Positions 2,075-27,984 of a stretch of 34,790 nucleotides of DNA are shown here, piece by piece. The position numbers were made by a program, and so were the translations under genes. Source of the DNA: Candidatus Eiseniibacteriota bacterium (GTDB lineage Bacteria > Eisenbacteria > RBG-16-71-46 > CAIMUX01 > WJJG01). Below the pieces are notes generated by a model. That model saw nothing but the letters and a program-made list of their open reading frames with translations, had not been told where the DNA came from and searched no databases. Location of the stretch: the NCBI GenBank assembly GCA_014729815.1, contig WJJG01000412.1:1-34790 (forward strand), written 5' to 3'. How positions within the stretch are numbered: the first letter of the stretch is position 1; each line of letters starts with the position of its first letter.

Positions 2075-3604
2075 CTAGTCGATCACCAGGTCGTTGTCGA
2101 CCCACACGGCCCCGCCTTCATAGGCGTTCTCCGTAGCGGCCAGGCGTTCGGCCCAGCTATCTACGGTGCCCGTCAGGGTCACAAAGCCGTCATCGACAGC
2201 AACCGCGATCTCCTCCTCGTTGACGTAGGGACTCCACCACAGCTCGCTCTCCACATCATCGCGAATCTCGGCATCCGACTCGAACGTGTAGAAGGGCGCG
2301 TAGTCGTACCAGTCCGCATCGTAGAAGTAGTAGTCGAACACATATGGATCGTAGACCAGGGCGTAGTCGGTCGCCTGGACGTCCAGATTGTTGTGGATGT
2401 CTTCCACACCGCGCGCGCGGGAGGCGATGTCCTGCGCCCGCCCCTTCTCGAAGTAGGTATCCACCGCGCCCGAGAGGTAGACATCCCTGTCGGCGACCGC
2501 GACCCCGATCTGGTAGCCCTCGACGTAGGGATCCCGCTGCAGGGCGCGGCGGATCGCACGCCCTACCTGGTCGTCGGTACGCTCCTCTGCGCGCACGCGC
2601 AGCCTATTCTCCACACCCAGGACACCAGTCGTGCGTCGCGCGACCTGTTCGGCCGCCTGCTTGGCCTTCACCGTAGCCACCTGCCCGCGCAGCCTCACCC
2701 AAGCACCCTCCACGTCCGGCTCGACATTGTACGACGCCACGCGCGGGTCGTAGAGCAGTGCGTCCTGCACCGCCGCCTCGATCTCGTCATCGGTCTTGAT
2801 GACCGTCGAGGGCCGACGTTGGGTTTCGTGCCGCAGCAGCGGGTTGACAGTCAGCTCCTCGGAATCGACCGCCGTCACACCCGCAACGCGCGCATCGAGG
2901 ATCGCCTCGCTCCGCTCCGCGGCGCTGCCCACGGTACCGCTCAGGGTCACTTCTCCGCCGTTTACGGCTACGTCGATGCGCTCCTCTTCCACCAGCACAT
3001 CCCACGCGAGGGCGCGCTCGATCTCCTCACGAATCTCCGCATCCGCCCGCGTGGTCTGGAAGTCGACGGCGATGCCGTTGGAGATCCCGGCAACGCCGCG
3101 CACGCCGGCCACGACGCGCTCGGCCAGCTCACGCTCACGCCACGAGTCGACGGTCCCGGAGAGCGTGGCGATGTTGTCGGCCACCGTAACGTCGATCTCC
3201 CAGGACTCGGTAGCCGGATCGAAGAGCAGCGCATCCTCGGCATCGCTCTCGATCTCCCAGTCCATGCGGCTCCAAGGCGGATCGACCTCGATCCGGTTGA
3301 CGACCGCGCGAACGCCCTTGATCGTCTCGGCGATGCGCCCGGCCCGGCGCTTGGCCAGCAGGTGGTGCACGCTGCCGGTGAGCGTCGCGATGCCGTCGTG
3401 GGTGCGCACGTCGATGTCGTTGAGAGGCACGGCCCGATCGAAGGCCAGTTCATCCTCCACGGCATCGGTGATCGACTGATCGGTCATCGTCGGCGTCGCC
3501 GCCGCCGCCGCCAGCGTCACCCCCATCATCGCTAGCAGTGCGCAGACACTGGCGCGCCTTGCTACTCGCCAAACTGTGCATCCGATTCCACGATCGGCTT
3601 CCAT
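2075..3604 (-). CDS. Secreted multi-BON-domain protein (OsmY-like; ~5 BON repeats), 509 aa
   Basis: Track ORF 2075..3778 trimmed to ATG 3604, which is preceded by AGAGGAGGAAATC. An N-terminal hydrophobic signal-like segment follows (ALLAMMGVTLAAAAA). There are repeated ~70-aa units of the BON pattern (I.V.V..G.VTLSG.V.S...R..A). Confidence 0.75.
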   Translation of the reverse strand: MEADRGIGCTVWRVARRASVCALLAMMGVTLAAAAATPTMTDQSITDAVEDELAFDRAVPLNDIDVRTHDGIATLTGSVHHLLAKRRAGRIAETIKGVRAVVNRIEVDPPWSRMDWEIESDAEDALLFDPATESWEIDVTVADNIATLSGTVDSWRERELAERVVAGVRGVAGISNGIAVDFQTTRADAEIREEIERALAWDVLVEEERIDVAVNGGEVTLSGTVGSAAERSEAILDARVAGVTAVDSEELTVNPLLRHETQRRPSTVIKTDDEIEAAVQDALLYDPRVASYNVEPDVEGAWVRLRGQVATVKAKQAAEQVARRTTGVLGVENRLRVRAEERTDDQVGRAIRRALQRDPYVEGYQIGVAVADRDVYLSGAVDTYFEKGRAQDIASRARGVEDIHNNLDVQATDYALVYDPYVFDYYFYDADWYDYAPFYTFESDAEIRDDVESELWWSPYVNEEEIAVAVDDGFVTLTGTVDSWAERLAATENAYEGGAVWVDNDLVID

Positions 3605-3992
3605 GATTTCCTCCTCTGATTGAGGCGGTCCCTCGCCGGATGTTTCGGCGACGGGCCGCGTAGGGTGGACTGCCTTCCCCTGCGCCGCGCAAGATAGCCC
3701 GCCTCCCAATGTCGCACCATGGGGCCGCCCTGGCGTCCGTAGGTGGACCCCTGCGCCATGCCCGCCTCCGGTCAACATCGGGCCGGCATGGGGGGGCGTC
3801 CCAGGCGGTGTTGCGGAATCACCTCAGGAGTCGAAGGGCCGCTGCCCGGTAGGGTGGTGTGACTACGCCTGCTAGCGTTCCGCTGCGCAGGCCACCGTCC
3901 CCGCTCCCGTCAGGCGTGGACCGAGCCGCCATGTGAGCGGGGCCGCGACGCCGTGCATCTTGGAGAGGCCCATCGAACCGCAAGGAGAGCAG

Positions 3993-4388
3993 ATGAGCGA
4001 ATACCACGAGCCGCTCGAGGCGCTCCCGGAAGGCGTCCGCGATGTTCACCGTGCCTTGCGCTCCCTGATCGAGGAGCTCGAAGCGGTGGACTGGTACCAT
4101 CAGCGCGCGGCCGCGACTGAGGACGCGGAACTGCAACGCATTGTCGAGCACAACCGTGATGAGGAGATCGAGCACGCCTGCATGGCCCTCGAATGGCTGC
4201 GGCGCAGAATGCCGGGCTGGGATGCGGAGCTACGAACCTATCTCTTCACCAGCGGCGACATCACCTCCGTCGAAGAGAGCGGCGGAGCCGGGGAGTCGGA
4301 TCCGCCGTCGGAACGGCAACAGGAGCCCGCGCGTCGATCCTCTGCCGGGGATCTCGGCCTGGGCAATCTGAGAGAGGAGGCGCGATGA
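3993..4388 (+). CDS. Encapsulated ferritin-like protein (EncFtn) cargo with C-terminal encapsulin-targeting peptide
   Basis: Core LIEELEAVDWYHQR...HNRDEEIEHACMALEWLRRRMP matches the EncFtn di-iron fold motif (E..H). The C-terminus [13 protein letters not shown] resembles family-1 cargo-loading peptides (D.GIGSL). AAGGAGAG lies upstream of ATG 3993. The stop TGA overlaps the shell-gene start (ATGATGA). Confidence 0.8.
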   Translation: MSEYHEPLEALPEGVRDVHRALRSLIEELEAVDWYHQRAAATEDAELQRIVEHNRDEEIEHACMALEWLRRRMPGWDAELRTYLFTSGDITSVEESGGAGESDPPSERQQEPARRSSAGDLGLGNLREEAR

Positions 4389-5185
4389 TGAATCTTCTGA
4401 AGCGAGCCCTGGCCCCCGTCTCGGACGCCGCCTGGGACGAGATCGACGAGGAGGCCCGCCGGGTCCTCGCGAGCAGCCTGACGGCGCGGCGCATCATGGA
4501 CGTCACGGGCCCCCACGGCCCCGCGTACGCCGCCGTCGGATTGGGCCGTATCACGACCTCCACGGAGGGGGCATCTGATCCTGTGGCGTACGGGATCCGT
4601 CGCGTGCTGCCGCTGATCGAGTTGCGGGCCAGCTTCGAGCTCGATCGCTGGGAGCTGGACAATGCCGAGCGCGGTGCCGCCGACATCGAGCTCGATCCAC
4701 TCACCGAGGCCGCACGGGAGCTCGCCCAGTTCGAAGAGCGTCTGGTCTATCACGGACTCCAGGAGGCCGGCATCGAGGGCCTTCGCGACGCTGCCGAGCA
4801 GGACCCGATTCCCCTCGGCACCGAGGGCGGCGACTATCCGAAGTCGATCGCCCGGGCGCTCGTATCGCTGCGCGAGGCGAGCATTGGTGGACCCTACGCA
4901 CTGGTCCTCGGATCGGAACCCTTTACCGCCCTCTCGGCCGCCTGCCAGGGCTGTCTTCCACGGCAGCAGATCGCACAGCTTCTCGAAGGGCCGGTGCTCC
5001 TGAGTCCGGTGATCGAAGGCGGATTCCTGCTCAGCACGCGTGGTGGGGACTTCGAGATCACGCTCGGGCAGGATGCCTCGATCGGCTGGCAGTCCCACGG
5101 GGAGGAGCGGATGAAGCTCTTCCTGATGGAGTCGCTGACCTTCCGCGTTCTCGAGCCGCGCGCCGTCGTCCCGCTCGAGGGCTAG
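4385..5185 (+). CDS. Family 1 encapsulin nanocompartment shell protein (HK97-fold, linocin M18-like)
   Basis: [21 protein letters not shown]..., [32 protein letters not shown] and [14 protein letters not shown] closely follow the conserved blocks of Thermotoga-type encapsulins. GAGAGGAGG lies 6 nt upstream. Track ORF 4193..5185 trimmed to ATG 4385. Confidence 0.85.
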
Positions 5186-5351
5186 TCGGAGGCGGCGCGC
5201 GCGGATCCGCGGGCCAATCGGCTGGTCCCGGAAGGCGGATCGCGGTGAGCCGACCGTGCCGGGAAGTCGGCGTGTGCCGGCTCGTCGTCTTGCCGCGTCG
5301 AGGCACCGGCCAGGCGCGCCGTTACATGCTCCCATCCAAGGAGGGGATCCG

Positions 5352-7430
5352 ATGCAGCAGTCCGCGCACTCGGACGCAGCCAAGCACTCGGACGAATCCG
5401 AGCGCGCCGATCGAAGCGATCCCCACGCCGACGACAAGCATCATCAAGACGACGAGCATCCCGCCCACCATGAACGGATGGCCGCCGACTTCCAGCGCCG
5501 CTTTTTCGCGTCCCTCCTGCTGACCCTCCCGATCGCCACGCTCTCCCCCATGCTCCAGTCCCTCTTCGGATTCGCGCCCCTGGCAGGGCTACCGGGGCAA
5601 CGCTACATCCTCTTCGCGCTCTCCGCGGCAGTCTACGTCTACGGCGGCTGGCCCTTTCTGACCGGCCTGATCGGTGAGCTGCGCGCCCGCCAGCCGGGCA
5701 TGATGACCCTCATCGGCTTGGCGGTCACTATAGCCTTCACCTACTCCTCCCTGGTCACCTTCGGACTCCGCGGCAAGGTCTTCTTCTGGGAGTTGGCCAG
5801 CCTGATCGATCTGATGCTCCTCGGCCACTGGATCGAGATGCGCTCGGTCATGGGCGCTTCCCGAGCCCTCGAGGAGCTGGCGGAGTTGCTTCCCAAGAAA
5901 GCCCATCGCCTGCGGGACGATGACGCCACCGAAGAGGTCCCGGTCTCCGAGTTGCGCTCGGGCGATCGAGTCCTGGTGCGGCCGGGAGAGAAGATCCCCG
6001 TCGACGGACAGATCCGCGAAGGCCACTCATCGATCAACGAGGCCGTGCTGACCGGCGAGTCGGAACCGGTCGAGAAGGCCGAGGGGGATCGAGTCATCGG
6101 TGGCGCGCTCAACGGGGAGGGCTCCTTGACCGTCGAGGTCACCGAGACCGGCGACGACTCGTTCCTGGGTCAGGTCATGGAACTCGTCGAGAAGGCGCAA
6201 CACAGCAAGTCTCGCTCGCAGAACCTCGCCGACCGCGCGGCACGCTGGTTGACGCTGATCGCGCTATCCGCCGGTGCGGTGACCTTGTCCGCCTGGCTGG
6301 CATTCTCGGCACGCGAGTTCATCTTTGCGCTCGAGCGCACGGTGACCGTCATGGTCATCACCTGCCCGCACGCCCTGGGACTCGCCGTGCCTCTGGTCGT
6401 CGCCGTCTCGACGGGCATCGCCGCGCGCCGCGGGCTCTACATCCGCAATCGACGAGCCTTCGAGGGCGCCTACCGCGCGAGCACGGTCGTCTTCGACAAG
6501 ACGGGCACCCTCACTCTGGGCCGCTTCGCAGTCGCAGACGTCGTGCCGCTCGATTCCGAGGCGCGGGCGGACGAGTTGTTACACCTGGCTGCCGCCGTCG
6601 AAGCGCATTCGGAGCATCCGATCGCTCGTGCGATCGTCGCCGCCGCCGAGGAGACCACGGATGTCAAGGGTGCGGCCTCGCAAAAGGCCACGGAGTTCGA
6701 GGCCATCCCGGGAAAGGGAGCCCGCGGACAGGTTGGAGATCGAGAGGTCATGCTCGTCAGCCCGAAGCATGCGCGCGAGAAGGAGATCTCCTTCGATGCG
6801 CAGCGCGTCGAAGAGCTGACCGAGCAAGGACGCACGGCCGTCCTGGTCCTGGCCGATCGCCGCGCAATCGGCGTCATCGCGCTCGCGGACCAGATCCGCC
6901 CCCAAGCCCGGGCGGCGCTGCAGGCGCTCCGGGAGTCCGGGCGGGATGTGATGATGGTCACAGGGGACTCCGAGCGTGTGGCGCGCGCCGTGGCGCGGGA
7001 GCTGGATCTGGACGGCTACTTCGCCGAGGTTCTGCCGGATGAGAAGGCCAAGAAGATCGAGGAGCTGCAGGGGCAGAAGCGCTTCATCGTCATGGTTGGC
7101 GACGGGGTCAACGACGCTCCCGCGCTGGCTCAGGCCGACCTGGGCGTCGCCATCGGCGCGGGCACCGACGTGGCCGTCGAGAGTGGGGATATCGTGCTGG
7201 TCAACAGCGATCCGGAAGATGTGGCAACCGCGTTGCGGCTCTCGGGCGCCACGCGCCGCAAGCTGGTGCAGAACCTCGTCTGGGCCACCGGCTACAATGT
7301 GTTCGCCATCCCTCTGGCCGCGGGGGTCCTCTTCTGGGCCGGGATCCTGCTCAGTCCCGCAGCCGGTGCCGTCTTGATGTCGCTCTCCACAGTGATCGTC
7401 GCGGTCAACGCCCGCTTTCTGAAGCTGTGA
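5352..7430 (+). CDS. copB: Heavy-metal P-type ATPase, P1B-3/CopB-like (CPH motif, His-rich N-terminus)
   Basis: DKTGT phosphorylation motif; TGES actuator motif; GDGVNDAP hinge. TM6 carries CPH rather than CPC. The N-terminus is His/Asp-rich ([35 protein letters not shown]) with no CxxC metal-binding domain. AAGGAGGGG lies 5 nt upstream of ATG 5352. Confidence 0.8.
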
Positions 7431-10499: not shown

Positions 10500-10642
10500 G
10501 CTTGCCTCCTTCTACCTACGCGCCCTGGTCGCTGCGCACGCACTGGCGGGTCACGGTCGCCTCGCGCTCCTGCTCGAGATCCGTACGCTTGCAAGCGCGC
10601 GCATTCGCAGGCCATGCCGAACCCGTCGCGGCCACGGCGGCG

Positions 10643-11173
10643 CTACCCTACCTGCGCGGACGTCAGCGCCGCGATGATGGCCCGGCAGAAGGCGGGCAGA
10701 TCCCCAGGATGGCGCGACGTGATCAGGTGTCCATCCTGTACGACCTCCGCATCGACCCACTCCGCACCGGCGTGCACCAGATCGGCCCGGATCGAGAAGA
10801 AGCTCGTCACCCGGCGGCCCTCAAGAATGTCGGCCGAGGCCAGCATCCAGCCGGCATGGCAGATCGCGGCGATCGGCTTGCCGGCCGTGTGCATGCGCTG
10901 CACGAACTCGATCATCTCCGGCACGCGGCGCATGTGATCCGGCGCGTAGCCGCCCGGAATGACCAAGGCGTCGAAATCGTCGGAGCTGGTCTCGCGGATC
11001 GCCCGCTGCGATTCGACCGTTGTGCCCTGTTTGCCCCGCCACTTCCCTTCCTCGGGACCGATGACGGTCACCTCGGCACCCGCCTCCTGCAGGCGCAATC
11101 GCGGATACCAGAGCTCCAGATCCTCGAACTGCGGAGCCACGAAGATGGCGATCCGCCTCCCGCTGAGCTGCAT
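10643..11173 (-). CDS. DJ-1/PfpI family protein (YhbO/PfpI-like general stress protein)
   Basis: RIAIF...EDLEL...ALVIPGG and IAAICHAGWML, carrying the nucleophile-elbow Cys. 176 aa is the typical length. Confidence 0.8.
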   Translation of the reverse strand: MQLSGRRIAIFVAPQFEDLELWYPRLRLQEAGAEVTVIGPEEGKWRGKQGTTVESQRAIRETSSDDFDALVIPGGYAPDHMRRVPEMIEFVQRMHTAGKPIAAICHAGWMLASADILEGRRVTSFFSIRADLVHAGAEWVDAEVVQDGHLITSRHPGDLPAFCRAIIAALTSAQVG

Positions 11174-11434
11174 GGCTGCCTCCCGGAATCATTTGGGGTA
11201 AGCGTGCATTCGTCTGCAGCCAGGGTGCCTTCGGGTTGCCGGCCCGGATACCGGGGATCCCGCCAATCGGTCCTAGGGCGCTTCGACGTTTGCGGACGGG
11301 CGTCGCGCCCACCATGCAGCTCTCGGGAGAACCCCCATCCTCCTGCCCGGAGAGCACCGGGCAGGCGCAACTGCAGCCACCGGATGACGGGGCGGCTCGC
11401 GGTATGGTATGCACGCCAGCAAGGAGGTACACCG

Positions 11435-12940
11435 ATGCACAAGCGACCCCGCGTCCTCGGTGGGACGGGACGGACTCCGCTCCACCGCGTCGGACGCATG
11501 CTGCTTCTGATCACCCTCGGCCTGGCCCTAACGGCGATTCCCGCCCGGGGACAGCCCGACCCCGCGTCAACGGACGAGATCAGCGACGCCACCCTCACAG
11601 CGGCGGTTCGCCAGCGACTGGCCAACGACTACGGCGTGTTGGCCGGAGAGATCGACGTCTCCACGACATCGGGCATCGTCACCCTGGCCGGTGCGGTGGA
11701 TCATATTCTGGCTCGCCAGCGAGCTGTCGAGCTCACCGGCACGCTGCGCGGTGTGCGGGGGGTGATCGACCGGTTGCGCGTCGAGCCGGTCTCCCGTACC
11801 GACGAGGAGATCCGCACTGACGTGGAAGTCGCCCTGCGGCTCAATCCTGCGGTCTCCTTCGACGATCTCGAGGTCGAGGTCCAGAGCGCGGTCGTTACGC
11901 TGCGTGGTGAGCTCGAATCGCTTGCGATGCAGCAGGCCGCCGCGCGGGCGGTCTACGGCGTGCGGGGCGTGCGCGACCTGATCGATCGGACCTCGCTCGA
12001 GGCGATCGCGCCGCGCAGCGATGCCGAGCTACGCGATGAGATCCAACAGCGCCTGCGTGCCGACGCCCGCGTGCGTGCCGATCGCATCACGGTCGCGGTT
12101 CGCGATCGCAACGTCACCCTGCGTGGTGTCGTCGGCTGCCCGGCCGAGCGGCAGGCTGCTGCCCGCGCCGCGGCTGTCCTGGGCGTGCGCCAGATCGATG
12201 CCGATTCACTGGTCGCGGACTGGGAGCGCTGCCAACTGCTGCGGGCCGATCTCCAGGAACGCATCGTCGAGCTCGGCGATCGAGAGATCGCCGAAGCGGT
12301 GCGGCTCGCTCTGGAGCTCGACCCACGAGTCGATCCAGTGGGCATCCAGGTCGAGGTCTCCGACCACGTCGCCACGCTCACCGGCAGCGTGGCGACGATG
12401 GGCGCCGCCGAGGCCGCCGAGGAGGACGCCCGGCACACCACCGGCGTTTGGTCGGTGCGCAGCCATCTGCTGGTGCGCCCCGAAAGCGTGCCTCCCGATG
12501 GCCGTCTGGAGGCCGAGATTCACGCGGCCCTGCAGCGCAATCCGTATGTCGCCGCCGACTCGATCAGCGTGGTGGTCAACAGCGGGCGCACCTATCTCTT
12601 CGGAGCCGTCGACAACGCCTTCACCGAAGCGGAGATTCTGCGCGTGGTCGGCGAAGTGCCCGGCGTGATCGTGGTTTCGAATAATCTGACGCTGGGCCGC
12701 GATGCCCGTCAGAAGTCGGATCGACAGCTCCGGCACGATGTGCGCAACGAGATCTGGTGGACCCCAATGGTCGATGCCGACGAGGTGATTGTCGAGGTGC
12801 GTGACGGTATCGTCACGCTGCTCGGGGATGTGGATTCGGCCACAGAGCGGCGCGAGGCGGCTGCGGCGACCCGGCGCGCGGGCGCCCGGGTAGTGATCAA
12901 TCGCCTGAAGATCAACGGCGAGATCGTGCTCCCGGGATAG
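11435..12940 (+). CDS. Secreted multi-BON-domain protein (paralog of 2075..3604), 501 aa
   Basis: Track ORF 10502..12940 trimmed to ATG 11435, which has AAGGAGG 7 nt upstream. N-terminal hydrophobic segment LLLITLGLALTAIPA. Five BON-like repeats. The C-terminal block DVRNEIWWTPMVDADEVIVEVRDGIVTLLGDVDS parallels DVESELWWSPYVNEEEIAVAVDDGFVTLTGTVDS of the other copy. Confidence 0.75.
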   Translation: MHKRPRVLGGTGRTPLHRVGRMLLLITLGLALTAIPARGQPDPASTDEISDATLTAAVRQRLANDYGVLAGEIDVSTTSGIVTLAGAVDHILARQRAVELTGTLRGVRGVIDRLRVEPVSRTDEEIRTDVEVALRLNPAVSFDDLEVEVQSAVVTLRGELESLAMQQAAARAVYGVRGVRDLIDRTSLEAIAPRSDAELRDEIQQRLRADARVRADRITVAVRDRNVTLRGVVGCPAERQAAARAAAVLGVRQIDADSLVADWERCQLLRADLQERIVELGDREIAEAVRLALELDPRVDPVGIQVEVSDHVATLTGSVATMGAAEAAEEDARHTTGVWSVRSHLLVRPESVPPDGRLEAEIHAALQRNPYVAADSISVVVNSGRTYLFGAVDNAFTEAEILRVVGEVPGVIVVSNNLTLGRDARQKSDRQLRHDVRNEIWWTPMVDADEVIVEVRDGIVTLLGDVDSATERREAAAATRRAGARVVINRLKINGEIVLPG

Positions 12941-13130
12941 CCGTTCCGCGCTCGATGCGGCCGCGCCTCGAAAGAACGCCGCAGCAGGACGTTGCAGCGC
13001 GGCGGGTTCCCCTGCAAAACGGTCCGCCGCGCTGCGAGCCTCCTGCCGGGCGCTGCGTCGCGACGAAGTGGGTGGGATCGACGCCGATCCGCCGCTCGGG
13101 AGCCCTGCATAGGGCGCAAGAAGCCTGTAC

Positions 13131-13574
13131 CTACTGCACGGGAATCCTCTCGCGACTGGTTTGAGGCGACTTGGGCAGCTCGAGATGCAGTACGCCGTCA
13201 CGGAGCTGCGCCTTCGCTTCCTGTGCATCGACCGCCGCCGGGAGCACGACCTCGCGCTCGTAGTGATGGAAGAAGTGACGCTCCTCCTGTGGCGCGCGGC
13301 GATCATCGCGTTGCTGCGCCGCCCGCTCGGCCTCGATGCGCAGCAGCTCCCGATCGAGGGTGACGAGAACCTCCTCCTTACGGAACCCGGGGAGTTCCGC
13401 CTCGACGTAGACGGCTTCGTCATCCTCGTGGACGTCTACCGGATACGACTCCTCTCCCCGGCGCAGCCGATCCGCATCCCACCAGCGGTCGATCGGATGG
13501 CGGCTGCGCCTTCCCGGGGCCATCGGCATATCGTCCCAGTCGCGCATCCTGCGGCGACGACGGATGGGCAGCAT
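13131..13574 (-). CDS. Hsp20/alpha-crystallin family small heat-shock protein
   Basis: Alpha-crystallin domain blocks (VDVHEDDEAVYVEAELPGFRKEEV...VLHLELPK) with an Arg-rich N-terminus. AAGGGAGG lies upstream of ATG 13574. Confidence 0.8.
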   Translation of the reverse strand: MLPIRRRRRMRDWDDMPMAPGRRSRHPIDRWWDADRLRRGEESYPVDVHEDDEAVYVEAELPGFRKEEVLVTLDRELLRIEAERAAQQRDDRRAPQEERHFFHHYEREVVLPAAVDAQEAKAQLRDGVLHLELPKSPQTSRERIPVQ

Positions 13575-13596
13575 TGGAACCTCCCTTCTGCGACGG

Positions 13597-13647
13597 CAGC
13601 CGCGCGCACCAGCAGCGCGCGGCTGCTATTCCGCGTAGCGGAATAGC
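13597..13647 (-). promoter_or_regulatory. Two adjacent perfect hairpins at the baeRF-like/Hsp20 junction; possible attenuator, processing or stability element
   Basis: GCAGCCGCGCGC-accagca-GCGCGCGGCTGC at 13597-13627 (12-bp stem). GCTATTCCGC-gta-GCGGAATAGC at 13625-13647 (10-bp stem), which encodes the last 7 codons plus stop of the upstream gene. No U-tract; the Hsp20 SD begins about 10 nt after the stems. Confidence 0.4.
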
Positions 13648-14831
13648 GCGGCGGCCACCGCGTCCTGTGGCAGAGTCTCGGCGTCCTGCAGATGGACGCG
13701 TCCGCCCCCGTTGAGGACCCGTACGGCCGCCCAGTTGAGCAGTTCCTCATGACCGGCCTGCCTGTGAAGCCGCACCTCCCGCGGCGGTTCATTCGGCGTC
13801 AGCCTCGGCGCCCAGCGCCGCGCATCCGGGGCCACGAAGAGGGCCTCGATCCGGTGCGCGGTCGCCGCCGCAGCGATCTCCGTGAGCAGCGTCGAGGCGG
13901 CTCTGGTCCCGACGTGGCGTCGCAGCCGATCCAGATCGGCGCGCCGCTGCAGTTCGATCTCCGCCTCCACGTGCGGCCAGACGGCATCGCGCAATTCGTG
14001 GGGGGTCCTGCGGCGCGGGTCGGTCGACAGCTCCGCATCCAGCAGGTGCGCGTAGTGGTTAGCCTGCCGGTAGAGAGGCAGCAGGTATTCGGTGCCGGCC
14101 AGAACGAGAGGATCCTGTCCGTGCGCGTGTAGCCAAGGCGCCAGCACGTTGTCGAGCTGCTGGAAGAACTGAAGCAGATCCTTCTTCTGCAGGCTGTCGT
14201 CCACTCCTCCGCCGCCATGACCGTGGTAGATGGCCGCGCGCCTCTGACCCCTTTGGCTTTGGGGCGTACCGGTATGGAACTGCAGATGACGTTCATCCTC
14301 CGATCGCTGCGGTAGCTCCTCGATCGAATGCGGCAGATCCGGTACGTCAATCTTCTCAGCGGACAGACGCGAGGCGCGGATTACGCGGACGCCGGGCGGC
14401 TCTAGGGCCAGGATGTGAAGCCGTTCCGCCGCCGCTTCGGCGGCCGGTAGGAGCGGCAGGATCCGGAATCGCCGGTCGACAAAGACCTCCTCCGGCGCAT
14501 CCCCGGGAAAGTCCGCCACGTAGACGTCACCGCGCCGCGCGAAGATGCCTACCGCGCCACCCGTGCCATCGCTGCCTCGCCCGCTCACCAGATCGAGCCC
14601 GCGATGCGGCAGCTCCTGCACGGGCGAGAGGATCTCCTCGGCCCCGCTGACATCCACTTCGAATTCGAGCAGCCTGCGGGCTGCCGAACGCACGTGATTG
14701 GCGAAGCGGGTTCCCGCCGTCTGAGCGGCATCTGCGGTTCCGGTTGGCATATAGATCGATACACAGGCTTCGCCCTCATGCCGCAGGAGCTGCTTCCAGT
14801 TCCCCTCGCTGCCCAAGCTCAATCGTTGCAA
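13626..14831 (-). CDS. Hypothetical protein with eRF1/Pelota-like central domain (bacterial eRF1-like, baeRF-type); function unknown
   Basis: The central region (RLHILALEPPGVRVIRA ... TPQSQRGQRRAAIYHGHGGG ... LQFFQQLDNVLAPWL...PLVLAGTEYLLPLY) parallels the eRF1 M-domain layout. A Gln-containing loop sits where GGQ would be. Assignment is by eye only. Confidence 0.4.
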   Translation of the reverse strand: MQRLSLGSEGNWKQLLRHEGEACVSIYMPTGTADAAQTAGTRFANHVRSAARRLLEFEVDVSGAEEILSPVQELPHRGLDLVSGRGSDGTGGAVGIFARRGDVYVADFPGDAPEEVFVDRRFRILPLLPAAEAAAERLHILALEPPGVRVIRASRLSAEKIDVPDLPHSIEELPQRSEDERHLQFHTGTPQSQRGQRRAAIYHGHGGGGVDDSLQKKDLLQFFQQLDNVLAPWLHAHGQDPLVLAGTEYLLPLYRQANHYAHLLDAELSTDPRRRTPHELRDAVWPHVEAEIELQRRADLDRLRRHVGTRAASTLLTEIAAAATAHRIEALFVAPDARRWAPRLTPNEPPREVRLHRQAGHEELLNWAAVRVLNGGGRVHLQDAETLPQDAVAAALFRYAE

Positions 14832-15020
14832 GCTGTATTCTCCCCTTCTCCAGCGTTCTCAGATCTTGCGGGATCGACTGCCGGTGACACCCGTCCCTCA
14901 CCGGACCCGCTCCGGCCCTCAGATACAGCAACCAGATAGCGCGATTCGTGGGGGCGGGGAATCGGCAGTCAGCGGTTTTCGGATTGGCCGCTTGCCCCAT
15001 CATCGCCTGGGGGGGAACCC

Positions 15021-16808
15021 CTAGGACGCTTGTGCGGGCCATAAGAGGATGCAGCGGACGAGTGTGCCCGTGTCCTCTGCGCGCCGCACGCTCACCATCG
15101 CGCCGAGCAGACGTGCCCGATAGCGCATGTTGCGCAGCCCGATGCCGTCTGATACGACATCATCGTCCTCGGAGAATCCTACGCCATCGTCGCGGATCTC
15201 CAAAGCAAGACGATCATGGGTCACCTCGAGAGAGATCCCGATCCGCTCGGGCCGCGCATGGCGGACGGCATTGGTCACCGCTTCCTGCGCGATCCGGTAG
15301 AGGTGCTCGGCGGTCGCGGCCGGCAGAGGGTGGAGCTCTCCGGTGAGTTGGAAGGCGCAGCGCATGCCGAAGATCTCCTCGGTTCGCTCAGCGAGCGCTT
15401 TGAGTCCTGACGCCAATTCCCCATCCGGACCGTGGCCAATCGGCGCCAAGTGATGCGAAAGCCCGCGCGCCGTGTCGAGAGCCTCGCGACTCAGACGCAC
15501 GATCTCCTCGGCCTGCTTCCCCAGTCGCTCGTCGCGTTCGGCGGCCTCCGCGGCAAGGCCCTCCGACAGAAGGGCCAGCCCGCTCAACGTCTGCCCCAGG
15601 GAATCGTGGAGCTCCGCCGAAAGCCGTCGCCGCTCGCTTTCGGCGGCCTCGAGTACCGCGCGCTCCATCTGCCGCTGCTCGGTCAAATCCCTCACGAGCC
15701 GCAGCCGCGCCTCCGCGATGCCCGGCGGCGCAGAGAAGTGCGACGCGCGCACCTGCACCCACAGCAGCTCCCCGCTCCGCTTGCGCAGCGCGCAATCACA
15801 GGCTCGGGACAGTTCCGCCGCTCGCCAGTCGCTGCAGTCCGCGATCTCTGCCCACTGTGGATCGAAGAGCTGCCGCTCGGGCATCTCCAGGAGCTCCTCC
15901 ACGCTGTACCCGAGCAACTCCGCCATACGCCGATTGGCGAAGATCGTCGCTCCCCCGGCATCCACGATCCAGATCCCCTCGCTGGTCGTCTCGACGATCT
16001 CCCGAAATTGGGCTTCGCGTTTCGCCAGCGCCCGTTCGGTTGCCAGACGGCGCGTGACGTCCATCGAAACCGCCACCACGCGAGTCGATCCGGCCCGCGT
16101 CAACGGCGCCAGACTCATCAGGTGATAGCGCCCCGAGCGCGATCGCACCAGCGTGTCGACCGGGTTTCCCCGCCGCGCCTCGGCGATCTCCTCGCGCAAC
16201 GCGGCCCCGTCCGCGGCGAACTCCGTCAGCGATCGACCCCGAAGCGCCCGCGGTCGCAGCGTCTCATCCTCCAGGGAGCGTCCTCGCGCAACCAGCACCC
16301 GTCCCTGCTCGTCCAGGTACCAGAACGTGACCGCCAGGCGTCCCGCGGCCAGGCGCAGCAGCCTGCTCAGTCGGCGACTGCGGCGCCGCGCCGCCAAGAA
16401 GCCGGATAGATCGCGAAGCAGGAGGCAGACCATATCGGCTTGTGGCACGTCGATCGGCGCGCCGGTGAACTGGACGTATCTGCTCGCTGGTCCCCGCAGC
16501 CCCATTCGCCACCGCGCGGGGCGGCGCGCGGCATGCTCGAGGAGGGAGCCCAGACGCGACCGGCGCCCCCTCGCGACCAGTTCCCGCAGATCGCGCCCGC
16601 GTAGATCGGTCACGCGCCGTCCCAGCACCTCCTCGACCGCAGGATTGGCGTCGACGATTTGGCCGTCCGTGCGCACGATCAGCGCGGGTTCCGCCAATCC
16701 CGCGAAGAAGTCCCGGCGGAGTTTGTGCGCCCCCTGGCTGGTGTGGGACCCTTCGCGCTCCCGACTCCGGTCCCCGGCCTCGCCGTGCTGAGAATCTCGT
16801 TCTGGCAT
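15021..16808 (-). CDS. Cytoplasmic sensor histidine kinase, multi-PAS, HisKA_3 type (partner of NarL/LuxR regulators)
   Basis: No TM segments. PAS-like repeats (e.g. TSEGIWIVDAGGATIFANRRMAELLGYS). H-box ELHDSLGQTLSGL. C-terminal HATPase (IRDDGVGF...GIGLRNMRYRARLLG). Start ATG 16808 is chosen within track ORF 15021..16883 but has a weak SD, so the start is uncertain. Confidence 0.75.
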   Translation of the reverse strand: MPERDSQHGEAGDRSREREGSHTSQGAHKLRRDFFAGLAEPALIVRTDGQIVDANPAVEEVLGRRVTDLRGRDLRELVARGRRSRLGSLLEHAARRPARWRMGLRGPASRYVQFTGAPIDVPQADMVCLLLRDLSGFLAARRRSRRLSRLLRLAAGRLAVTFWYLDEQGRVLVARGRSLEDETLRPRALRGRSLTEFAADGAALREEIAEARRGNPVDTLVRSRSGRYHLMSLAPLTRAGSTRVVAVSMDVTRRLATERALAKREAQFREIVETTSEGIWIVDAGGATIFANRRMAELLGYSVEELLEMPERQLFDPQWAEIADCSDWRAAELSRACDCALRKRSGELLWVQVRASHFSAPPGIAEARLRLVRDLTEQRQMERAVLEAAESERRRLSAELHDSLGQTLSGLALLSEGLAAEAAERDERLGKQAEEIVRLSREALDTARGLSHHLAPIGHGPDGELASGLKALAERTEEIFGMRCAFQLTGELHPLPAATAEHLYRIAQEAVTNAVRHARPERIGISLEVTHDRLALEIRDDGVGFSEDDDVVSDGIGLRNMRYRARLLGAMVSVRRAEDTGTLVRCILLWPAQAS

Positions 16809-16883
16809 CGGTCCTTCCCGTGACGCAGGCGTCTGGCAATGTCGCTGCAGCCGCATTCTGGGATCCAATCCCCATACGCGCAA

Positions 16884-16916
16884 GCCCGCTTCCTGCCGGT
16901 ACGGCAGCAGCGGGCC
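16884..16916 (-). terminator. Hairpin downstream of dodecin (GCCCGC..CTGCCG-gta-CGGCAG..GCGGGC); candidate terminator separating SOR-dodecin from the kinase gene
   Basis: Nested inverted repeat with one internal bulge, 47 nt after the dodecin stop. On the minus strand it is followed by TTGCGCGTATGGGGATTGG. Confidence 0.3.
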
Positions 16917-16962
16917 GGCTCAGAGCGCCTCTGTGGGAGCCGCCAACGCCTCGTGGACTCCC

Positions 16963-17166
16963 CTACGAGGAGACCACAAAGGTCACCTTCATCGTGACCC
17001 GGTAGGCCGTGATCTTCCCTTCCTGGATCTGGACATCTTGGTCCTTGATCCATGCACTCTGCACGTTGCTCAGGGTCTCCCCGGTTCTGGCGATGCCCTC
17101 GCGGATGGCATCCTCGAACCCCTTCTCGGATTGCGCCGTCACTTCGATGACCTTGGCAATCGACAC
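16963..17166 (-). CDS. Dodecin (small flavin-binding/storage protein)
   Basis: 67 aa. MSIAKVIEVTAQSEKGFEDAIREGIARTGETLSNVQSAWIKDQ matches dodecin family conservation. GTG start with AAGGAGG 7 nt upstream. Confidence 0.7.
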   Translation of the reverse strand: MSIAKVIEVTAQSEKGFEDAIREGIARTGETLSNVQSAWIKDQDVQIQEGKITAYRVTMKVTFVVSS

Positions 17167-17227: not shown

Positions 17228-17626
17228 CTACTTGTTGACGGTGATCTTCTTCGTGTTCTCCCACAGGCCGTGGATGTTGCAGTAGCTGGCTGCGAGCAGC
17301 GTTCCGCTCTGCTCGGCCTTCATCTGCACCACCGCCTCGTGGTGGGCATACACACCACTGGAGTCCGGTCCATCCGGCGCCGCCCCATGCGCGGCGAACT
17401 CGGCGCGGGCGACCTGGATCGGGAACTTCGTCCCGTCGGGATGGAAGTGCACGTCCACCCAACGGATGTGATGGGCGGTCTCGTTGGGATGCGCCACCTC
17501 CTTCCCCAAGGTGATGCGCACGTCGAAGATCTCGCCCGCCTTGACTTCCTCGGGCGCATCGATCACCGGCACATGCTTCTCCGACTTCCAGTCGGCACTC
17601 TGAAACCGCTCTCCAAACTCGCTCAT
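17228..17626 (-). CDS. sor: Superoxide reductase, 1Fe (neelaredoxin/desulfoferrodoxin centre-II type)
   Basis: EKHVPV motif; His ligands (H..H in IRWVDVHFH); C-terminal CNIHGLWE with Cys and His ligands. Track ORF trimmed to ATG 17626, which has AGAAGGAGG 5 nt upstream. 132 aa. Confidence 0.8.
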   Translation of the reverse strand: MSEFGERFQSADWKSEKHVPVIDAPEEVKAGEIFDVRITLGKEVAHPNETAHHIRWVDVHFHPDGTKFPIQVARAEFAAHGAAPDGPDSSGVYAHHEAVVQMKAEQSGTLLAASYCNIHGLWENTKKITVNK

Positions 17627-17901
17627 GGGATCCTCCTTCTCTACACGACCGGCGTCATGCGCACACGACTCGCTTGCGACTCGTCCCGGTGCGCGAGCCC
17701 GTCGCGCGGACGACACGCACTCTACGACCGCGGCGAAGAGAGAAACATCCGGATGCGGATGATCTGCGCCTGGGGCGTGCCACTAGACAAAGGCAGGGAC
17801 AGGAGGATGTGTGAGGCCGATCAATCGGCGCGGTGGGCGAAGCGCATGGCGTGCAGAGTACTGTCGCAAGGCCCGCATGCCCCGGCGAAGTGGGGGGCGC
17901 G

Positions 17902-18549
17902 CTAGCGCGACTCCATCCAACCCACGGCGTGACGAATCAGTTCCGTGCTGTTCTTCAGCCCGAACTTCAGCTTGATGTTCTCGCGATACGTCTCGATGGT
18001 CTTCATGCTCAGATTGAGCGCTTGCGCGATGCTCCGCGTCGTCTCGCCGCGGCCGATCAGCTCGAAGACCTCCAGTTCGCGATCCGAAAGGGCTTCGATC
18101 GGGGAGGAGCCTACCTCGGCCTTGGTGTTCACCATACGATTCAGCACGCGTTCCGACATCCGTTCGCTGAGATAGACCTTGCCGTCCAGAACACGCCGAA
18201 TCGCTTCGACCACCCGGGCCGAGCTCTCCGACTTGGCGATGTAGCCGCGCGCGCCGGCGTGAAGGCAGCGCTCGGCGTAGAGCGATTCGTCGTGCATCGA
18301 GCAGACCAGGATCGGCAGCTCCTCATCCAATGCGCGGATCTGCTTGACCAGTTCCAAGCCGCCTACGTCCGGCAGTGAGATATCGACGACGACCAGGTCG
18401 GGTCGTTCCTTGTCGATCGCCTCGAGCGCCGATCCCGCATCCGGCAGCGCCCAGGCGACCTCCAGGTCCATTTCGCGGTTGATCATCTGAGAGAGGCCTT
18501 GCCGCACGATCGGATGATCGTCGACCAGCATGATCCTTGCTTTGGCCAT
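17902..18549 (-). CDS. Two-component response regulator, NarL/FixJ (LuxR-type HTH) family
   Basis: Receiver domain MAKARIMLVDDHPIVRQGL...DLVVVDISLPD. C-terminal LuxR HTH (ELEVFELIGRGETTRSIAQALNLSMKTIETYR). Trimmed from track ORF 17902..18906. Confidence 0.85.
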   Translation of the reverse strand: MAKARIMLVDDHPIVRQGLSQMINREMDLEVAWALPDAGSALEAIDKERPDLVVVDISLPDVGGLELVKQIRALDEELPILVCSMHDESLYAERCLHAGARGYIAKSESSARVVEAIRRVLDGKVYLSERMSERVLNRMVNTKAEVGSSPIEALSDRELEVFELIGRGETTRSIAQALNLSMKTIETYRENIKLKFGLKNSTELIRHAVGWMESR

Positions 18550-18750
18550 GGGAATAGACTCCTCATGTCGCGCGCTTGCGCGTCCGCGACCCGCCCCGGG
18601 CGAGGAAGCCCGAGTCCGTTCGGCGCTGCGTTCCTCACTGCGTCCGGCGGCAGTATACACGACCCCCGACGCCACTTCACTGGTCAGGCGCACGGCCCGG
18701 GGAGGCCCGCCCTCAGGAACGCAGAGGCGCCCGCTTGGAATCCCGGCCTG

Positions 18751-18770
18751 GTTGTTTTCCCCAGGATATG
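18751..18770. promoter_or_regulatory. AT-rich motif TGTTTTCCCCAGGATATGAT in the RR/S2P divergent intergenic region; a near-copy occurs at 32285-32303
   Basis: The conserved core TGTTTTCC(CC)AGGATAT is unusually AT-rich for this ~70% GC sequence. Both copies sit in divergent promoter regions. Confidence 0.3.
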
Positions 18771-18956
18771 ATGGGTGCCTCCCCGTTTGCCGAGAAGCAG
18801 CTCGGCCGGATGGGCGCGGCCTCCGCGCCGCTCTAAAGTGATCCGCGGCTGCCCGGCGCCCGGAGCGGAGTCGCACGGGACAGGCGCATGGAGCGTAGGC
18901 GCACATGCTCGGTGCCTGGGGCGGTGACGGTTCCGAGCGCCCGTAGGGAGGCTGTC

Positions 18957-24561: not shown

Positions 24562-24919
24562 CGGGCTGCGTCTCATCCCGGTGTCGCCGGGGCGGCCTCT
24601 GGGGTCAAGCAGGATATCGGTCCGGGTGAATGTCCTACGTCCGAAGCACAGCCAGCGCAAGCGTCGCCTTGGCCGTGCATTGCGCACTCGGTGTCCACAC
24701 CGTCCCATCGGCGGCGCCAGGCCGCGTGCTTGACGAAGAGCCGGGCGATCTCCACTGTCCGGGGCAAGACAGGCGCGCGGGGCCCAGCCCGCCGGCGGCG
24801 TGAATCCCGAACGCGGGTCGAAGCCCGCCCGCTTGGCGACACCGGTCCGCGTGACGAGATGTGCGCGAAGTGGTGCCGCGCCCGGGAGGCGCACTCCGCA
24901 TGCACTGAAGGAGACGACC

Positions 24920-25549
24920 ATGCCCGGCGACCGCCTGAAGGAATACCGCCGCAAGCGCGACTTTCGCCGCACCCCCGAACCGGGCAAGCGCGGCAAGCGT
25001 CGCGGCAAAGGTCCTTTCTTCGTCATTCAGGAACATGACGCGCGCCAGCGTCACTTCGACTTCCGCTTGCAGGTCGGCGATGCGCTCAAGTCGTGGGCGG
25101 TGCCCAAGGGACCCTCGACCGATCCGCGCGAGAAGCGTCTCGCCGTGCAGGTCGAGGATCATCCGCTCGACTATGCCGACTTCGAGGGCGTGATCCCCGA
25201 AGGCGAGTACGGCGCGGGCAGCGTGATCGTTTGGGATCACGGCCCCTATCGCAACGAGAACCGCGACCGAGACGGAAAACAGATCTCGCTCGAGCAAGCG
25301 CTGCGTCGCGGGCGGATCGAGCTATGGCTCGATGGCCAGAAGCTGCAGGGCGGGTACGCGCTGGTTCGCACGCGCATGGGCGGAAAGAAGAAGAACTGGC
25401 TGCTGATCAAGATGAAGGACGAGAAGGCGGATGCGCGTCGCAGTCCGGTCAGCTCCCAGCCGAAGAGCGTGCTGAGCGATCGCACCGTCAAGCAGGTCGC
25501 GCGTGATGCGCGCCGCCAAACGGACGGCGAGGACTCCGGTGAAGATTGA
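24920..25549 (+). CDS. LigD-type 3'-phosphoesterase (PE) domain protein, stand-alone
   Basis: GKGPFFVIQEHDARQRHFDFRL ... SWAVPKGPS ... DHGPY are the conserved PE-domain blocks. AAGGAG lies 6 nt upstream of ATG 24920. Trimmed from track ORF 24800..25549. Confidence 0.75.
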   Translation: MPGDRLKEYRRKRDFRRTPEPGKRGKRRGKGPFFVIQEHDARQRHFDFRLQVGDALKSWAVPKGPSTDPREKRLAVQVEDHPLDYADFEGVIPEGEYGAGSVIVWDHGPYRNENRDRDGKQISLEQALRRGRIELWLDGQKLQGGYALVRTRMGGKKKNWLLIKMKDEKADARRSPVSSQPKSVLSDRTVKQVARDARRQTDGEDSGED

Positions 25550-26552
25550 TCTGCACGAGGAACTCCCGGCTGCCGAGCGCGAGCTCCTGCGCCAACGCCG
25601 CCAACCGCGCTGGACGTCGCCGATGCTGGCCGTGTTGACGGACAAGCGCTTTGCCGATGCCGAATGGAGCTACGAGCGCAAGCTCGATGGCGTCCGCTGC
25701 CTCGTGTTCCGTCGCGGCAAACAGGTGCGTCTCGTTTCGCGCAACCGCAAGTCGATGAATCGCACCTATCCGGAGCTCGTCGAGGAGATCGGTCGCCAGC
25801 CGATCGATCACTTCATCGCCGATGGTGAGATCGTGGCCTTCGCAGGCAACCGCACCAGCTTCCAGCGCCTCCAGCAGCGCATCGGCATCCGCGATCCCCA
25901 AGAGGCGCGCCGCCGTGGCGTGGCCGTCTATCTCTATCTCTTCGATCTGCTGCACCTCGGCGACTACGACACGACCCGCCTTCCGCAACACCGCCGCAAG
26001 GCGCTGCTGCGCAAGGCGCTGCGCTACTCGAACCGCTTGCGCTACACGCCGCATAGGCGTCACACGGGGCTCGACTACTATCGCGAGAGCTGCCGGAAGG
26101 GACGGGAAGGGGTGATCGTCAAACGGCGCGATGCACCCTATCGGCACGGCCGCTCGACCGATTGGTTGAAGTTCAAGTGCGTCAACCAGCAGGAATTCGT
26201 CATCGGCGGCTACACCGAACCGGAGGGGCAACGGATCGGGTTCGGAGCGCTGCATGTCGGGTTCTATGCGGACGGCAAGCTACGCTACGCGGGCAAGGTG
26301 GGCACCGGATACGACCGCCAGACGCTGCGCGATCTTTCGCGCCGACTGGGACGCATCGAGCGCCACAGTTCGCCCTTTGCGGATGGCGACGAGATCGCCG
26401 CCGGCCAGACGCATTGGGTGTCCCCCAAACTCGTCGCCGAGATCGGCTTCACCGAATGGACCGCGGAACATCGCCTGCGCCACCCTCGGTTCCTGGGGCT
26501 GCGCGAGGACAAGGCGCCGCGGAAGGTCCGGCGGGAGACGCCGGGGGGCTAG
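25539..26552 (+). CDS. ATP-dependent DNA ligase, LigD ligase-domain type, stand-alone
   Basis: PMLAVLT...WSYERKLDGVRCL (KxDG adenylation motif), GEIVA..., EGVIVKRRDAPY, and an OB-fold C-terminus. The start is either GTG 25539 (GAGGA 6 nt upstream; overlaps the PE stop by 11 nt) or ATG 25503. Confidence 0.7.
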   Translation: MKIDLHEELPAAERELLRQRRQPRWTSPMLAVLTDKRFADAEWSYERKLDGVRCLVFRRGKQVRLVSRNRKSMNRTYPELVEEIGRQPIDHFIADGEIVAFAGNRTSFQRLQQRIGIRDPQEARRRGVAVYLYLFDLLHLGDYDTTRLPQHRRKALLRKALRYSNRLRYTPHRRHTGLDYYRESCRKGREGVIVKRRDAPYRHGRSTDWLKFKCVNQQEFVIGGYTEPEGQRIGFGALHVGFYADGKLRYAGKVGTGYDRQTLRDLSRRLGRIERHSSPFADGDEIAAGQTHWVSPKLVAEIGFTEWTAEHRLRHPRFLGLREDKAPRKVRRETPGG

Positions 26553-26554
26553 GC

Positions 26555-27632: not shown

Positions 27633-27923
27633 ATGACGCAAGATAGAGATGCGTATCGGAAGAAGCGTGAGGCAGAGCTCGAGCAGCTCGAGGCCGAATT
27701 GCAGCGGCTGCAGGGCAAAGCCAAGGAGGCGGAGGCCGAGGCACGCATCGGCTTCCAGCAACAAGCCTACGAACTGCAAGAGAAGCGCGATCAGGTGCGC
27801 GAGAGGCTGCGCGAGCTGAGCGAGGCCGGTACGGATGCCTGGGACAAGACCCGGGAGGGCCTCGAGGAGGCGCTGACGGATCTCCGTACGGCGCTCGAAG
27901 TTGCGTCCACTCGCTTCAAGTAG
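27633..27923 (+). CDS. Small coiled-coil hypothetical protein (~96 aa), highly charged
   Basis: Trimmed to ATG 27633 (GGAGGAGGAG adjacent). Heptad-like EAELEQLEAELQRLQGKAKEAEAEARI sequence. No assignable family. Confidence 0.4.
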   Translation: MTQDRDAYRKKREAELEQLEAELQRLQGKAKEAEAEARIGFQQQAYELQEKRDQVRERLRELSEAGTDAWDKTREGLEEALTDLRTALEVASTRFK

Positions 27924-27984
27924 GATCTTCAGGGGCCCCTCCCGGTCGCCGCCCGATGCCGGCGTAGATGGGGAGGCGGATGTC

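Follow-up and report, generated by a model that had tools for sequence, protein, structure and literature searches.

The window analysed here is an entire contig of 34,790 base pairs (bp), with 67% G+C, from a metagenome-assembled genome of Candidatus Eisenbacteria. We were interested in two genes that stand in tandem on its minus strand, an open reading frame (ORF) of 401 amino acids (aa) and, after a spacer of 51 nucleotides (nt; 13575-13625), an Hsp20 ORF of 147 aa, with two perfect stem-loops, called hairpin 1 and hairpin 2 below, at their junction (Table 1). The product of the first gene is identical to the NCBI entry 'hypothetical protein GF330_14915'. The reading that we favour, with moderate confidence, is that this product is a divergent hibernation factor of the Balon type encoded in tandem with Hsp20, and that the hairpins act as a leaky terminator, an attenuator or a nuclease barrier.

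The 147-aa product matched the Pfam domain PF00011 over aa 47-146 (2.1e-17, 63.5 bits against a cut-off of 20.8). It carries an AELPG motif, and its C-terminus, ...RIPVQ, holds an I-P-V of the I-x-I/V type. The NCBIfam models Hsp14, Hsp20 and Hsp18 gave values of 1e-14 to 4e-19, every one under its cut-off. Judging by the domain and the motifs, this is a genuine small heat-shock protein with an alpha-crystallin domain, placed in tandem on the same strand as an earlier first-pass annotation of this DNA had it. An antisense ORF of 161 aa (13161-13646, plus strand; third-position G+C 0.81) overlaps the gene, and a naive gene call based on third-position G+C put it in place of the true Hsp20 ORF; it is an artefact of the G+C-rich sequence and no gene.

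The family of the 401-aa protein was determined with Pfam and NCBIfam. In Pfam, the protein was matched by baeRF_family7 (1.8e-32, 112.9 bits; gathering cut-off 27.2) and baeRF_family3 (1.4e-31, 110.6 bits; gathering cut-off 31.5), and it was also above the gathering thresholds of baeRF families 6, 11 and 8. The top NCBIfam model was NF052287, the AOC03_06830 family of ribosome hibernation factors (6.7e-17), aligned over its full length (aa 13-399 to model positions 2-361 of 361). AOC03_06830 is Balon, which was found on the ribosomes of Psychrobacter urativorans (PDB 8RD8/8RDV/8RDW; NF052287; Helena-Bueno et al., Nature 2024, PMC10901736). P. urativorans Balon, reconstructed from printed alignments, itself belonged to Pfam baeRF_family3, with a score like that of the 401-aa protein. 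When the PDB was searched, a single-sequence phmmer run detected the Balon chain 8rd8_B at 0.0016, while a profile of 28 relatives detected it at 4e-42, together with the M. smegmatis Balon MSMEG_1130 (8v9j_z) at 3.7e-9.

An AlphaFold2 model built on the alignment of 28 relatives had a predicted local distance difference test score (pLDDT) of 87.6 and a predicted template modelling score of 0.82. Searched against the PDB with Foldseek, this model gave Balon chains at ranks 1-5 and 7 (E 9e-20 to 5e-12; template modelling (TM) score 0.59-0.73). The best matches were 8rd8/8rdv/8rdw (8rd8_B at 9e-20; TM 0.65-0.73, about 400 aligned columns), and Msmeg1130 came after them, with Rv2629 at rank 7. 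The aRF1 structure 4af1 was sixth and eRF1 and Pelota were lower, with TM of 0.2-0.43 for the three. The eRF1/Pelota fold and the baeRF type assigned in the first-pass annotation were therefore borne out by both Pfam and structure comparison. The order of blocks that it had described in the M domain also agrees with the model, in which strands at 138-143 and 147-153 (HILALE/VRVIRA) are followed by a disordered loop at 177-208 (TPQSQRGQRR..HGHGGG), a helix at 210-236, a strand at 242-246 (PLVLA) and a helix at 250-257.

The Balon family was originally collected by iterative HMMER searches from P. urativorans Balon, with a length of at least 300 aa and three domains (PMC10901736). The protein studied here has full-length homology, 401 aa and a three-domain aeRF1-like architecture. 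Sequence and predicted structure together place it as a divergent member of the Balon/baeRF-1 family with an aeRF1-like N-M-C fold. The search for relatives returned 4,667 representative clusters at E<=0.001 and 3,292 at 1e-10, and the profile scores indicate a Balon homologue whose subfamily, a sister of Balon's own, has no characterised member.

Conservation of the functional loops was read from an alignment of 171 relatives. Neither a NIKS nor a GGQ motif is present in the 401-aa sequence, so that the catalytic GGQ and the codon-recognition motif of aeRF1-type class-I release factors are both missing. On this ground, we take it for a probable non-catalytic blocker of the A site rather than a factor for release or rescue. 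The M-domain loop has pLDDT below 50 at aa 177-186 and 201-208. At aa 203-206 (14214-14225) it carries HGHG, of which H203 is conserved in 89% of the relatives, G204 in 96%, H205 in 56% (Q in 35%) and G206 in 88%. An F-H-G-H-G motif of the subfamily caps this loop where eRF1 has GGQ; it is not found in P. urativorans Balon. The N-domain loop, PTGTADAAQTAGT, aligns with THREHPANDQDP of Balon and is presumed to be the counterpart of the HP motif; it is similar in length to Balon's, but without the His and Pro of THREHP. The family consensus at this loop is PTHRxGPExQDPIRLKN (H 48%, G 71%, Q 74%, K44 87%). The C-domain insert was modelled with pLDDT of 89-96 and corresponds to the beta-hairpin insertion of the Balon family.

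The two hairpins of the junction were then characterised. Hairpin 1 covers the last codons of the 401-aa gene (L-F-R-Y-A-E) and its TAG stop, with a predicted energy of -14.9 kcal/mol. One arm reads CTA-TTC-CGC (Leu-Phe-Arg) and, after the loop TAC, its exact reverse complement reads GCG-GAA-TAG (Ala-Glu-stop). Among the genes of the contig, 3.9% of Leu codons are CTA and 23% of Glu codons are GAA, and the use of these rare codons argues for selection on the palindrome. Because of these codons, and because 81% of the 171 relatives end at a conserved ..F-R-Y without an AE tail, the AE tail and the stop look like the product of the palindrome. The stem of hairpin 2 is all G/C plus one A, with a predicted energy of -27.8 kcal/mol at 37 C. 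Since the two stems have 2 nt in common, they can never be at full length at once (at most about 9+12 or 10+10 bp), and the minimum free energy fold of the junction forms both hairpins with one slightly shortened. Both stem-loops had been seen in the first-pass annotation, and both were recovered by the inverted-repeat scan, although the second, given as 13597-13627, lies one base away at 13596-13626. It had also correctly stated that neither has a U-tract and that the Hsp20 Shine-Dalgarno sequence (SD) follows. The tail past hairpin 2 is CGUCGCAGAAGG, which has no U-tract and is not that of a canonical intrinsic terminator, and a consensus scan of 12500-15500 found no U-tract terminators.

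The junction hairpins exceed chance. The window holds two perfect hairpins of at least 12 bp where dinucleotide shuffles gave 0.06, and those of at least 10 bp gave five scan entries (one stem at two loop sizes) against 0.89. The 60-mer 13650-13591, at -39.0 kcal/mol, was the lowest of all sampled 60-mers on both strands of the contig (mean -20.0, 1st percentile -32.4 kcal/mol). Neither palindrome, nor a near-copy with up to three mismatches, recurs in the 35-kb contig; no exact match to the junction sequence turned up in a scan of metagenome contigs, and no relatives close enough for hairpin covariation were found, the top protein identity being 38%. The other perfect 12-bp hairpin of the scan lies at 12367-12397, inside the BON coding sequence (CGTCGCCACGC..GCGTGGCGACG, ..VATLTGSVAT..).

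Similar structures stand at other gene ends of the contig. The arms of the stem that separates the Hsp20 gene from the convergent BON gene start and finish like those of hairpin 2 (GCAGC...GCTGC), also without a U-tract, and it was the single similar 12-bp stem in a contig scan for this pattern; it is likely a bidirectional transcript-end structure. The 60-mer at the junction of the dodecin and kinase genes, the second same-strand intergenic hairpin of the locus, belongs to the top 0.1% of the contig in fold stability, several further gene ends to the top 1-2%, and a top-2% structure marks the stop codon at 24% of 79 homologue loci. The junction hairpins thus resemble GC-rich gene-end structures elsewhere in the contig. 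By analogy, they are probably a U-less transcript-end structure between two cistrons that terminates or attenuates transcription or affects mRNA stability. Leaky termination or attenuation appears most likely because only 10 nt lie between hairpin 2 and the Hsp20 SD, and the near lack of promoter room past hairpin 2 points to a leaky terminator and/or a nuclease barrier.

The hairpins might instead be a complete terminator, with Hsp20 transcribed from its own promoter inside the 3′-terminal part of the 401-aa gene, so that the two genes would be neighbours and not an operon. Their position exactly at the stop codon, shared with other gene ends of the contig and with the 24% of homologue loci, fits this explanation, as does the finding that unrelated genes mostly follow those of the closest relatives. 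However, there is no U-tract, and a consensus scan found no sigma-70-like promoter in 12500-15500 (the consensus may not be that of the host phylum, whose promoter types may differ). Moreover, only 21 nt separate hairpin 2 from the Hsp20 ATG, and a metagenome locus with the same gene order (L155) has a spacer of 16 nt, as is typical within operons. We therefore regard separate transcription as unlikely.

Alternatively, the palindromes could be DNA operators for a dimeric heat-shock or stress repressor (CIRCE/HAIR-like) that overlap the Hsp20 promoter. Each is an inverted repeat without mismatches (10-N3-10 and 12-N7-12), their midpoints lie 62 and 37 nt ahead of the Hsp20 ATG, and the rare codons in hairpin 1 keep the symmetry. 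Nevertheless, the palindromes are unrepeated in the contig, even with up to three mismatches, which argues against a shared operator as well as a REP-like (repetitive extragenic palindromic) element. There are no promoter-like hexamers, a 12-mer arm made almost wholly of G and C is unusual for an operator, and the similar GC stem stands in a convergent terminator position. These points make an operator function quite improbable.

The first-pass annotation had proposed a release-factor-like or rescue-like protein. We consider it very improbable that the 401-aa protein is a catalytically active factor, whether an aeRF1/Vms1-like peptidyl-tRNA hydrolase or a Pelota-like splitter, and not a hibernation factor. 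In both structure and sequence it is matched best by the non-catalytic Balon proteins (PMC10901736), and baeRF-1 families without the Gln are predicted to be inactive, non-catalytic translation blockers (Burroughs and Aravind 2019, PMC6514570). An active factor would agree with the aeRF1/Pelota fold, with the family-conserved HGHG and with divergent decoding-centre and EF-Tu loops that could signal a changed function. The Gln-containing loop that had been noted at the GGQ position does exist, with three Gln, but these are specific to this protein: the loop has no GGQ or GxxQ, and no Gln in it is conserved across the 171 relatives.

Small heat-shock genes are classic targets of RNA thermometers, such as ROSE, fourU and the cyanobacterial hsp17 untranslated region (UTR). 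The structure at this junction lies directly 5′ of the Hsp20 SD, but a thermometer or riboswitch-like gate on Hsp20 translation (the structured RNA switch of the first-pass annotation) is hardly tenable and was rejected, because no Rfam family reached its gathering threshold in the contig and the junction gave only chance-level matches (E<=5), the SD and AUG lie outside both stems, the SD is predicted to pair with a probability that stays level (0.44-0.48) between 25 and 65 C, the stems are too stable (hairpin 2 still at -12.4 kcal/mol at 75 C), and L155 has the same gene order without such a structure.

The conservation of the gene pair was examined at 166 homologue loci, comprising three around P0003 and P0006, 80 genome loci gathered with a 10-sequence alignment of relatives, four around other homologues and 79 distinct loci from metagenomes. 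Four of the 166 have Hsp20 in their 4-5 kb flanks. Among the first 83 loci it was seen at two cyanobacterial loci only, upstream and not adjacent. At the 31 non-cyanobacterial loci, no Hsp20 occurred among the two nearest ORFs per side, and the commonest families among the 117 flanking ORFs had 3-5 ORFs each (Usp 3). L155 was the sole locus with the same order, a baeRF gene followed by Hsp20 with AAGGAGG in the spacer, and it lacks the hairpins, which thus belong to no conserved design. The sporadic occurrence of Hsp20 indicates that the association is at the level of a stress island and is not a fixed two-gene module. In L155 (1639-2090) the Hsp20 frame is broken by an in-frame TAG about 28 codons past the ATG, and the alpha-crystallin domain carries on in another ORF, as a result of sequencing error, pseudogene formation or recoding. 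A further locus (L087) has baeRF, P-type ATPase, STAS, BON, HSP20 and Usp genes in a row, echoing the gene content of the window. Around the relative P0006 (L002, 2265-2615 and neighbours), genes for a RaiA-like S30AE protein, a DUF308 (HdeD-like) protein, a PRC-barrel protein and a NarL-type regulator were observed, kinds that match those of the window and of published Balon neighbourhoods. The neighbours of Balon genes published as common are Hsp20, OsmC/OsmY, HdeD, RaiA, MarC/EmrB and RtcB (PMC10901736 and the Balon preprint). The pairing, which had been thought not to be a described one, is therefore already described.

Several findings weigh against a Balon-type hibernation factor in tandem with Hsp20. 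Besides the scarcity of Hsp20 near the homologues, the score on NF052287 was 62 bits against an equivalog cut-off of 330 bits, and nine close relatives scored 87-177 bits, also under it; scores in this range put the protein outside every characterised Balon clade. It is an outlier, with a best relative only 38% identical among 1.8 billion representatives searched. Its N-domain loop is without the H, G and Q-D-P of the family and the 87%-conserved Lys, and WG at the base of the hairpin in the C-domain insert (W340 96%, G341 99% in relatives) is altered to W-A-P, an Ala plus a one-residue insertion seen in none of the 171 relatives. RaiA/HPF (S30AE) had no match among the scanned ORFs of the 34.8-kb contig. 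For the junction, the fold of 111 nt gave z = -2.2 against shuffles, and U-less hairpins are not established terminators.

On the favoured reading, the 401-aa protein would, by homology, enter the ribosomal A site under stress, with the N domain at the decoding centre, the M-domain loop at the peptidyl-transferase centre and the C domain towards EF-Tu. Lacking NIKS and a catalytic GGQ, it would park ribosomes in hibernation without peptide release, which agrees with the 2019 prediction for baeRF-1 proteins that lack the Gln (PMC6514570). The 401-aa protein and Hsp20 are probably induced together, in which case ribosomes would be preserved while unfolding proteins are held. As a leaky terminator or attenuator and/or a barrier to 3′-exonucleases or processing, the hairpins would let the two mRNAs reach separate levels; they are no temperature-sensing switch.

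A more far-reaching possibility is a neofunctionalised Balon paralogue that cooperates with Hsp20, with the twin palindromes as a translation-coupled device. It is suggested by the loss of the decoding-centre loop residues and of WG while the HGHG loop is kept, and we rate it as a long shot. If it were true, ribosomes could be parked in a different state, or stalled nascent chains could be linked to the holdase. A ribosome that ends translation at the TAG in hairpin 1 would open this hairpin together with the 5′ arm of hairpin 2, and Hsp20 expression would be tied to ongoing translation of the hibernation factor.

The other genes of the contig (68-34747) were identified by a domain scan of its ORFs (Table 1), which also detected an M50-CBS protease and a PRC-barrel protein. 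By its gene content, the 35-kb contig reads like a stress, dormancy and desiccation island. The kinase and the NarL/LuxR-type regulator upstream of the 401-aa gene are candidate regulators of the locus. A HisKA_3 kinase with a NarL-type regulator is the same two-component type as DosS/DosR. A DosR-like box, GGGAC-N4-GTCAC, at 14884-14897 upstream of the 401-aa gene was considered and dropped, since four matches against 2.75 expected are not significant.

Table 1. Coordinates of the gene pair, its junction, the protein loops and the other features of the window.
Feature	Positions	Strand	Details
GH65 phosphorylase fragment (trehalose metabolism)	68-862		domain scan of contig ORFs
Second six-BON-domain protein, OsmY-like	2075-3778	minus	Pfam
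Encapsulin	4193-5185		domain scan of contig ORFs
P-type ATPase	5256-7430		domain scan of contig ORFs
OsmY-like protein, six BON domains	10502-12940	plus	PF04972 6.5e-69, 6 stretches; convergent with Hsp20
GC stem between convergent Hsp20 and BON genes	12994-13035		perfect 12 bp (GCAGCGCGGCGG / CCGCCGCGCTGC), 18-nt loop
Hsp20 ORF, 147 aa	13131-13574	minus	PF00011; ATG start
Hsp20 Shine-Dalgarno, GGGAGG	13580-13585	minus	10 nt past hairpin 2, 5 nt ahead of ATG
Hairpin 2	13596-13607/13615-13626	minus	perfect 12-bp stem, 7-nt loop; inverted-repeat scan
Hairpin 1	13625-13634/13638-13647	minus	perfect 10-bp stem, 3-nt loop; inverted-repeat scan
401-aa ORF	13626-14831	minus	TTG start at 14831, TAG stop at 13626
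C-domain insert, aa 338-360	13752-13820	minus	gapless alignment to EF-Tu-binding beta-hairpin of 8rd8_B
M-domain loop at eRF1 GGQ-loop position, aa 177-209	14205-14303	minus	LQFHT and HGHG family motifs
N-domain loop, aa 29-41, PTGTADAAQTAGT	14709-14747	minus	aligns with Balon THREHPANDQDP loop; degenerate
Shine-Dalgarno of 401-aa gene	14840-14851	minus	purine-rich GGAGAAGGGGAG, 8 nt upstream of TTG
PAS-PAS-HisKA_3 histidine kinase	15021-16883	minus	Pfam; directly upstream of 401-aa gene, same strand
Dodecin/PAS kinase same-strand junction	16883-16942		imperfect hairpin GCCCGCUGCUGCCG..CGGCAGGAAGCGGGC, 60-mer -36.9 kcal/mol
Dodecin	16963-17166	minus	domain scan of contig ORFs
Desulfoferrodoxin (superoxide reductase)	17228-17716	minus	domain scan of contig ORFs
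NarL/LuxR-type response regulator (Response_reg + GerE)	17902-18906	minus	Pfam
Split LigD, three-gene set	24800-27466		domain scan of contig ORFs
OtsA (trehalose metabolism)	27901-29511		domain scan of contig ORFs
TreT (trehalose metabolism)	29508-30893	minus	domain scan of contig ORFs
ABC-F ATPase	32541-34220		domain scan of contig ORFs

Two further observations concern the contig as such. In the 812-aa BON ORF (plus strand, from 10502), the first domain match is at aa 361, with none in the first 360 residues, and a signal-peptide-like segment begins near MHKRPRVLGG...; the real start is probably about 1 kb downstream of 10502. The stretch 10502-11560 is of uncertain coding status and overlaps several alternative ORFs. 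The stops of the 29 called genes are 21 TAG, 8 TGA and no TAA. Counted as trinucleotides, TGA outnumbers TAG 2.5-fold in the contig (732 versus 291), yet TAG leads as stop, which is unusual for a bacterium of 67% G+C, where TGA normally dominates.

No new system is described here; the protein is a divergent new member of the Balon/baeRF-1 kind, and both this kind and the type of context are already known. The analysis improves the annotation, in that a 'hypothetical protein' becomes a putative ribosome hibernation factor of the Balon (baeRF-1) family and the contig a dormancy and stress island, and it adds one more case, from a phylum that has barely been studied, to the published Balon-Hsp20/OsmY neighbourhoods. 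For specialists, the interest lies in a subfamily of about 3,300 representative clusters (E<=1e-10) that has HGHG at the eRF1 GGQ position and no characterised member, and in an outlier protein with altered ribosome and EF-Tu contact loops; the general picture is unchanged.

Intercistronic stem-loops that set differential mRNA levels are known from the REP hairpins in malEFG and from the hairpins of the Rhodobacter puf operon. Like these, the junction hairpins are very stable, U-less, placed between same-strand cistrons and immediately 3′ of a stop codon. Unlike REP hairpins, both are unique in the contig. With the thermometers of the ROSE, fourU and hsp17 5′ UTR types they share only the position 5′ of the Hsp20 start, the SD and AUG being free at this junction.

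Among the protein systems, aeRF1/eRF1 and Pelota/Dom34 have the same N-M-C domain order and an RNase-H-like M domain, and the eRF1 segment YVRKVAE...GLVLAGSADFK is the counterpart of LQFFQQLD...PLVLAG in the 401-aa protein, a match already pointed out in the first-pass annotation. In contrast to them, the 401-aa protein is bacterial and coexists with RF1/RF2. The baeRF-1 clade (PMC6514570; PF18845/PF18849) shares with it a two-strand insert in the Pelota-like domain and the lack of the catalytic Gln, and the paper on this clade stresses a linkage to HPF/RaiA, of which none was seen on the contig. Msmeg1130 and Rv2629 (8V9J/8V9K/8V9L; NF052288, NF052289) fold like the 401-aa protein (Foldseek E 1e-16 to 5e-12), with a weaker sequence relation (0.0087 to NF052288) and larger C-domain insertions (supplement of PMC10901736). 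They belong to hypoxia or dormancy regulons, and the 401-aa gene adjoins a HisKA_3 kinase and a NarL-type regulator.

Balon is the closest comparison. It is without NIKS and GGQ and binds the A site independently of mRNA (PMC10901736). In Balon and its mycobacterial homologues, an extended N-domain loop with the HP motif touches the decoding centre at A1492/A1913; the M domain has a lasso-like loop with a bL27 trap, and a beta-hairpin insertion in the C domain contacts EF-Tu (PMC10901736). The Balon preprint reports co-occurrence with RaiA/HPF within the same genome. The 401-aa protein is about 20-23% identical to Balon. Its M-domain loop is about 10 residues longer and has the conserved HGHG that Balon lacks, and it has no His or Pro at THREHP and W-A-P for WG. 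With Balon it shares the three-domain aeRF1-like fold of baeRF_family3 without NIKS or GGQ, a C-domain insert of equal length, a C-terminal ..RY motif and a stress cluster with Hsp20 and OsmY/BON neighbours.

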